A DNA stretch of 64,000 nt from Escherichia coli (GCF_003334355.1 NZ_QOWP01000002.1), one strand, 5' to 3'; positions 59,838 through 60,728 are shown, numbered from the stretch's first letter. Program-made: numbers and translations. The notes: a model not told the origin generated them from the sequence alone.

Positions 59838-60728
59838 TTAGTGGCTTTGCGCGATAAGATCGTCTGGTGAAAGTCGGGTCACCATCATAACTAACTCTCT
59901 GTCTAAACCTCTATCCAGCATCTCCTGAGCAATACGCAGGGCTTCTTCGTGTTTGCCCTGCATTGCGCCTTCTTCACGTAATCTGTCAGCAATGGTCATC
60001 AGTTTCTCCTTTTCTTGTGGTGCGCGTTCCGCTATCTCACCAATAAATGCACGAAAACGCTGGGCATCCCCTGTTTGTAATACGTAATTAAACAGGGCTT
60101 TTAGCTGTCTGTCATTAGTGTTCCCTGTAACTAGCAGCGAAACAATTTGGTCGACTAATCCCAACAGATCGCGCTGACGAATATGTTTCTGAATTAACTC
60201 CAACAGCGCCATTTTGCGGTGTTGCATAATCTCGTCATCCGGCACCACGGTAATATCCACCAACGGAAAAGCCGATGAATATATTTTGCGGGCTATAGCA
60301 GGCTCGGCAAATTCATCAAGCCAGCAGAGTGAATAAGGATAAGGACTTCTGCAACCATGATAAAACAGCATCGGGAGCACCAATGGAAGCTCTTTATAGC
60401 CCGCATCAAGATGGTTTTGCATTGCCGCAATGGAATAACGCATCATGCGAAAAGCCATTAATTCTTCCGGCTTACTTTGGTGCTCTATCACTACATAAAT
60501 ATAACCCACTCCCTCCTGCGTTTTCACAGACCACAAGAGGTCGGAATAATATTGCCGCAGGTCTTCATCAATAAAACTGTTTGGTTCCAGTTTAAGCGTC
60601 GTTAAATCACACAGTTTGCGCAGCGGCGCGGGAAGATGAATATCAATAAAATCCCGCGCGGTGTCTGGATGGCGTAAAAAAGATTTAAATACCGCATCAT
60701 GCGGCGTGGAAGTTGTCGATATTGTCAT
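59838..60728 (-). CDS. rpnB: Rpn-family recombination-promoting nuclease (PDDEXK-type, transposase_31-like) RpnB/YfcI
   Basis: 296 aa; N-terminus [18 protein letters not shown]... typical of the YhgA/Rpn family. Confidence 0.85.

Follow-up and report, generated by a model that had tools for sequence, protein, structure and literature searches.

The rpnB (yfcI) locus of Escherichia coli is a gene-within-gene toxin-antitoxin pair. It lies near the end of the 64,000-nucleotide stretch of DNA analyzed here (the window), where a single open reading frame on the minus strand (59838..60728, ATG start, stop codon included) encodes the full-length, 296-residue protein RpnB_L, and a second, much shorter protein, RpnB_S, is encoded in the same frame at its 3' end. 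Taking all of the evidence below together, we put at roughly 85% the probability that the locus is best explained as a one-gene, two-protein Rpn toxin-antitoxin module, in which the nuclease toxin RpnB_L is blocked by RpnB_S. An earlier note on this DNA, made from the sequence, had marked a gene at 59838-60728 between housekeeping genes, and the reading frame is found exactly there, flanked by yfcH (58897..59790, plus strand) and hisP (60925..61698, minus strand). In its observations that note is confirmed; its interpretation is partly supported.

The gene itself holds no surprises. It shows 0 nucleotide differences from rpnB (b2305) of strain MG1655, and the encoded protein is likewise identical to the K-12 RpnB (YfcI) on which Kingston et al. 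(2017, PMC5350276) and later Zhong et al. (2023, PMC10400941) worked, at the same yfcH/hisP locus and with the same internal start. The whole window keeps the order of MG1655 2362824..2426811, at 99.1-99.5% identity. The DNA around rpnB differs by 0.5-0.9%, which marks it as that of a different E. coli strain; the gene is without any difference. A megablast search of 5426 complete E. coli genomes returned the gene annotated as rpnB and flanked by yfcH and hisP. The locus is therefore E. coli rpnB, already described in the literature, and the finding is real but ordinary.

Profile searches assign the protein to its family with scores far beyond chance: Pfam PF04754 (Transposase_31) matches residues 8-209 with E=2.8e-90, taking in positions 1-202 of the 203 in the model, and NCBIfam TIGR01784 ('Rpn family recombination-promoting nuclease/putative transposase', a family also known as COG5464) scores 186.9 bits where the cutoff is 52.1. 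The same NCBIfam search also matches an 'ISNCY family transposase' model. Together with the identity to b2305, the PF04754 and TIGR01784 matches bear out the earlier assignment to rpnB/yfcI and to the YhgA/Rpn PDDEXK (transposase_31-like) family. The note had allowed that this assignment might fall either to a profile search or to a loss of catalytic residues; the search places RpnB in the Rpn family and the residues, described next, are intact, so the family call stands.

The Transposase_31/YhgA-like domain (residues 8-209; 60102..60707, minus strand) comprises a PD-(D/E)XK core at approximately residues 1-125 and a P163-D-D-E166 motif. Codons read from the sequence within 60477..60542 (minus strand) specify D63 (60542..60540, GAC), E82 (60485..60483, GAG), H83 and Q84 (60479..60477, CAA), a D...E-x-Q variant of the PD-(D/E)XK motif. 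The catalytic-residue alignment that had been suggested was made with 102 sequences (RpnB, the K-12 proteins RpnA, RpnC and RpnE, and 98 further homologs) and reveals no loss: D11, D63, E82, R94 and D164 are invariant throughout, and Q84, P163 and D165 are at least 90% conserved. E166, which completes the PDDE motif, is likewise invariant or conserved to at least 90%. Among the four K-12 proteins, D11, D63, E82, Q84, R94 and the PDDE motif are all invariant, and RpnB in this way retains every RpnA residue proven important by mutagenesis. In RpnA, the substitutions D11A, D63A, E82A and Q84K abolished recombination, toxicity and SOS induction alike, and D63A also lost nuclease activity in vitro (PMC5350276). 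An AlphaFold2 model of RpnB, with a pLDDT of 63.8 overall and of 70-85 over residues 11-130, appears to have the order alpha-beta-beta-beta-alpha-beta seen in the restriction-endonuclease fold; in this model D63 falls right before the second strand, and E82 and Q84 lie on the third.

Published overexpression of RpnB in vivo resulted in 98.7% killing, early SOS induction and a 19-fold increase in RecA-independent recombination; Mg2+-dependent DNA endonuclease activity in vitro has been published from RpnA only, the data on RpnB being in vivo only. The description of RpnB as a 'recombination-promoting nuclease' is outdated: it refers to a phenotype seen on overexpression, and the current reading is of a toxin-antitoxin, defense-type system. 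This bears on an alternative, the one favored by the earlier note, in which RpnB would be a domesticated mobile-element nuclease, a former transposase now fixed in the chromosome and acting alone in host recombination or DNA repair. The 19-fold increase fits such a role, and Zhong et al. allow housekeeping roles for some Rpn proteins; yet deletion of rpnA-D left basal recombination unchanged in published work. For this reason and others given below we consider a domesticated housekeeping nuclease improbable.

One of those reasons is the antitoxin. A Shine-Dalgarno sequence, AAGGAG (60011..60006, minus strand; codons K240-E241), stands 6 nt upstream of an internal ATG (59999..59997) that is codon M244 of rpnB and opens rpnB_S, a nested in-frame gene of 53 aa (59838..59999, minus strand). 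The minus-strand sequence at this internal start reads CAAGAAAAGGAGAAACTGATGACCATT, with AAGGAG-N6-ATG in frame at codon 244. All six K-12 rpn paralogs carry GGAG at equal spacing before an in-frame ATG (codons 242-245), and in the 102-sequence alignment M244 is invariant and the Shine-Dalgarno codons K240 and E241 are at least 90% conserved. Helices are predicted in the RpnB tail at residues 237-272, 277-284 and 288-292, and residues 244-295 align to residues 1-48 of chain A of the RpnA_S crystal structure 7TH0 in a weak, full-length phmmer match (E=0.0026). Residue 29 of the peptide derived from the window is an aspartate, in agreement with the numbering of the published 'RpnBS D29 stop' mutant.

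The experimental case for the second protein is found in the literature. Zhong et al. (2023, PMC10400941) detected SPA-tagged RpnB_S from the chromosome, and both RpnB proteins are detectably expressed from there (PMC10400941). An allele from which the internal start was removed, RpnB_L*, proved more toxic than RpnB_LS, and RpnB-dependent SOS induction was suppressed by RpnB_S, not by RpnA_S, a suppression that was lost when a stop was placed at D29 of RpnB_S (PMC10400941). In all five rpn genes, Ribo-RET profiling found the major initiation sites to be internal and in frame (bioRxiv 10.1101/520783), and Zhong et al. (2023, PMC10400941) report that dRNA-seq places a transcription start site within every rpn gene. 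Because RpnB_S is both made and neutralizes RpnB_L, the statement in the earlier note that the gene has no partner genes is wrong: a 53-aa antitoxin is nested at codon 244 and has been shown experimentally (PMC10400941). A gene that encodes its own inhibitor is also not acting alone, as the domesticated nuclease is supposed to do.

We picture the module as follows. Translation from the first ATG (60728) would produce RpnB_L, a PD-(D/E)XK DNA endonuclease (D63/E82/Q84) expected to damage DNA and to be toxic if unopposed. Translation from the internal Shine-Dalgarno sequence and ATG at codon 244 (59999), fed according to the literature by an internal promoter, would produce the 53-aa RpnB_S, which is identical in sequence to the C-terminal helical tail of RpnB_L and is probably made separately and usually in excess. 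RpnB_S would then bind the identical tail of RpnB_L via their shared long first helix, so blocking the nuclease, with the number of four-residue repeats in that helix likely setting the specificity of pairing. From the plasmid paralog RpnP2 and from the population pattern described below, we infer that the natural role of RpnB may be abortive-infection-type anti-phage defense; anti-phage protection has been published only for RpnP2, not for chromosomal RpnB, and alkaline pH is a published hint as to what might release the toxin. A PADLOC scan of RpnB_L and RpnB_S returned 0 matches, which is uninformative, as the 2023 library is without an Rpn model. No defense genes stand beside rpnB in the window, its neighbors being housekeeping genes.

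A terminator-like hairpin with a T-run lies directly after hisP (60895..60918, minus strand), so rpnB should have its own promoter within 60729..60894. Sigma-70 consensus scans gave no convincing minus-strand match upstream of rpnB and no convincing match upstream of the internal rpnB_S start; with both scans empty, the internal promoter is drawn from the literature only. At the other end, where the 3' ends of yfcH and rpnB converge, a hairpin with an 11-bp perfect, extendable stem overlaps the yfcH stop codon (59770..59816). It has an RNA folding energy of -31.8 kcal/mol (z=-4.7) with no clear U-tract on either strand, and since it is kept in alleles that lack rpnB it belongs to the chromosomal backbone rather than to rpnB.

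The gene is present in 4756 of the 5426 complete E. coli genomes (gene-only query), in 1-2 places each (median 1) and on no plasmid in the 4756 genomes with a match, while the remaining ~670 (~12%) lack it and have yfcH and hisP adjacent. Alignment of the window with three empty-site genomes (L086-L088) delimits an rpnB-specific segment of 1002 bp (59817..60818), which takes in the gene with 21 bp beyond its 3' end and 90 bp before its 5' end; in place of this segment the three empty alleles carry an unrelated filler of 27 bp, CGGAAACGCTGATGAATAAATATAGAT. No direct repeat or target-site duplication was found at the junctions when the window was compared with these three alleles, and a search of the flanks for terminal inverted or direct repeats around rpnB gave only short, chance-level matches; the earlier note was correct that inverted repeats are missing. 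The lack of terminal inverted repeats and of a target-site duplication, together with the filler at the empty site, agrees with the published view that rpn genes are unlikely to be transposases, according to which they are without terminal inverted repeats, target-site duplications or defined ends and bear no sign of ever having been autonomous transposases.

These observations weigh on the idea that RpnB is the transposase of an active or recently active IS-like element. Database labels (putative transposase, ISNCY) suggest as much, and presence/absence polymorphism within E. coli, as well as a non-orthologous Rpn gene in the same slot of one Citrobacter metagenome-assembled genome (MAG; see below), might be expected of such an element. 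It is already largely refuted, and we find it scarcely credible, given that terminal inverted repeats and a target-site duplication are lacking, that the unrelated 27-bp filler is not a clean excision or insertion joint, that a DNA-level search finds the gene in 1-2 places per genome and never on a plasmid, and that the paralogs are 52-66% identical and each at its own fixed locus. A domesticated former transposase, by comparison, gains some support from the Pfam name Transposase_31 and the match to the ISNCY transposase model, and from rpnB being single-copy amid housekeeping genes, without repeats; but no autonomous transposase of the same fold is known, nothing indicates past transposition of rpn genes, and a gene that ~12% of the complete E. 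coli genomes do without, and that does not occupy the slot in the sampled genera other than Escherichia, does not behave as a fixed host function.

A further alternative is a neutral, decaying remnant without current function. The loss of rpnB from ~12% of genomes would then be explained, and in K-12 decay is also seen in two paralogs, the pseudogene rpnD and the inactive rpnE. Sporadic and independent insertions of IS1B, IS1A, IS903B and ISVsa5 interrupt rpnB at different positions inside the gene, and IS1SD is inserted in the upstream rpnB-hisP spacer; the independent IS1, IS903 and ISVsa5 insertions can likewise be taken as signs of decay. Against this, the reading frame is annotated as intact in 58 of 60 sampled records, 4743 of the 4756 carrier genomes hold at least 80% of the gene in one place, conservation extends to all catalytic residues and to the internal start, chromosomal expression of both proteins is detectable, and tail insertions and deletions come in multiples of 12 nt that keep the frame. 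We regard decay without function as very improbable. The insertions came to light in strains 3985, SEC470/H10407, a K-12 laboratory strain, SWYHX138 and 1332KP, representing at least five independent events.

The tail shared by RpnB_L and RpnB_S is where the protein varies most. Nine Escherichia RpnB alleles differ at 45 amino-acid columns, 26 of which fall in residues 241-300 (58% of the variable columns lie within the final 19% of the sequence), and among the K-12 paralogs the N-terminal domain is 54-70% identical and the tail 25-50%. Tails from 120 homologs comprise 76 distinct sequences, with a main length series of 49, 53, 57, 61 ... 81 aa in steps of 4. The steps are produced by four-residue xQEG-type units added shortly after 'RLR.EG', matching the description by Zhong et al. 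(2023) of a tail length that varies by four-amino-acid repeats beginning 8-20 residues past the internal Met. In the window the site of length variation is residues 253-258, EGAMQG (59955..59972, minus strand), a short-class allele with a 53-aa tail; other Escherichia alleles have REEGRNDGLILGKR at this site, a gain of 12 nt, so that two lengths occur at the rpnB locus, 891 bp/296 aa as in the window and 903 bp/300 aa. A hypervariable tail of this kind points to diversifying selection, not to the purifying selection of a housekeeping gene, and is a further point against the domesticated nuclease.

For these reasons we find the earlier description of a 'domesticated' mobile element unsupported: the published analysis sees no autonomous-transposase past, and the gene is not fixed, with ~670 of 5426 genomes lacking it and with a hypervariable tail. 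Absence from ~12% of genomes, a slot occupied in this way almost only in Escherichia, the variable tail and the IS disruptions show instead that rpnB is an accessory, dispensable and diversifying gene rather than a domesticated housekeeping enzyme.

Both the 53-aa-tail and the 57-aa-tail alleles (the longer with REEGRNDGLILGKR) are found in E. coli and in other Escherichia (L089, L092, L006, L009 and L010), which could reflect trans-species polymorphism or recombination. One may speculate that the two tails represent mutually non-neutralizing 'incompatibility types' held across species by balancing selection, that with the ~12% null allele they form a three-state defense polymorphism, and that the yfcH-hisP interval is a small, recurrent capture site for accessory genes, having taken up a GNAT gene, unknown ORFs and, on two independent occasions, an Rpn gene; we offer this only tentatively and think it more apt to fail than to hold. 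If true, a chromosomal Rpn locus would amount to a three-state defense polymorphism in a core-genome slot.

A cluster of 'partial' RpnB proteins of 254 aa, with 990 member sequences (P0018), ends at G254, exactly at the site of the four-residue indel, where the truncation may come from contig breaks at the repeat or mark an insertion hotspot. Three proteins, all from metagenome contigs (P0012, P0017 and P0020), join N-terminal ~100-160 residues identical to RpnC, RpnA or RpnE to the C-terminal half of RpnB; either the assembly created these chimeras across the conserved AFRMMRY region, or paralogs have genuinely recombined. The top PDB sequence matches were designer pentatricopeptide-repeat proteins (residues 253-287; 59868..59972, minus strand; consensus GKLDEALKLFEEMVEKGI), and these we rejected as a spurious helical-hairpin likeness, the PDB E=3e-10 being a sum over ten repeats, each with an i-Evalue >100.

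The yfcH-hisP slot was surveyed at 80 species loci around yfcH (cargo compared across L012-L085; example slots are L012:5966-6481, L022:6109-7490 and L042:5891-5938). An Rpn gene occupies it only in Escherichia (E. coli, E. whittamii and other species representatives), save for one Citrobacter MAG. Most Enterobacteriaceae have there a gene for a GNAT-type acetyltransferase of ~170 aa, all of the profile matches to which are below curated cutoffs. Klebsiella, Raoultella and some others carry, besides the GNAT gene, two ORFs of unknown kind of 85 and 188 aa with no NCBIfam match, and in Salmonella and Buttiauxella brennerae only 57-66 nt separate yfcH from hisP. The exceptional Citrobacter gene (Citrobacter sp. 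MAG HRGM_Genome_0066, L034:6497-7459) lies in the same slot beside the GNAT gene and has a 53-aa tail. We rejected it as an RpnB ortholog: it is 63-66% identical to RpnA, RpnB, RpnD and RpnE and 53% to RpnC, and being no nearer to RpnB than to the other paralogs it suggests that an Rpn gene was captured here a second time, independently. The K-12 paralogs are solitary, each at an unrelated fixed site (rpnA between feoC and bioH, rpnC between panD and panC, rpnD, a pseudogene in MG1655, between mdtM and yjiR, and rpnE between glpC and yfaU), and are 52-66% identical.

No IS, transposase, integrase or prophage genes are annotated in the K-12 stretch that corresponds to it, and the claim that rpnB is the only gene here with a mobile-element-like pedigree therefore holds. 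We had considered whether rpnE falls inside the window, but its position is ~5 kb ahead of where the window begins. The window has no tRNA genes, and its sole Rfam match above the gathering score is the nuoG RNA motif RF01748 (50.3 bits; 37361..37403, minus strand), inside the nuo operon.

As rpnB is a locus of the textbook strain, studied genetically and biochemically in 2017 and 2023, nothing new is to be learned from the gene itself. What is worth recording is the correction: a gene that looks solitary and 'transposase-like' in fact encodes a complete toxin-antitoxin pair, whose architecture is invisible to an ORF-based reading. Any Transposase_31/Rpn match merits a check for a Shine-Dalgarno sequence and ATG near codon 244, and for tail lengths in four-residue steps. 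What is mildly new is at the population level, namely the breakpoints of the empty allele (~12%), the two tail-length alleles across Escherichia species, and the cargo of the slot with its Escherichia-specific occupancy, modest additions to the question of why chromosomal Rpn loci persist.

Compared with known systems, rpnB has in common with insertion sequences only a historical database name and a patchy distribution; it differs from them in being without terminal inverted repeats, target-site duplication, defined ends and multi-copy identical elements, and its fold is not known in autonomous transposases. Other PD-(D/E)XK defense or toxin nucleases are among the closest systems, including Shedu SduA, the CdiA-CT EC869 DNase, and restriction or nicking endonucleases. 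RpnA (YhgA), the member that serves as the family's biochemical and structural model, is 66% identical to RpnB, shares D11, D63, E82, Q84, R94 and the PDDE motif, also has its internal start at codon 244 after AAGGAG, and provides in RpnA_S the structure (7TH0) to which the RpnB tail aligns. The two differ in tail length (49 aa in RpnA, 53 aa in RpnB, with 48% tail identity), their antitoxins are not interchangeable, and of the two RpnB has the higher toxicity and the earlier SOS induction. The plasmid-encoded RpnP2_LS belongs to the same family and follows the same gene-within-gene toxin-antitoxin logic; unlike the chromosomal RpnB, it is carried on a plasmid, from which it protects its host against T-even phages.
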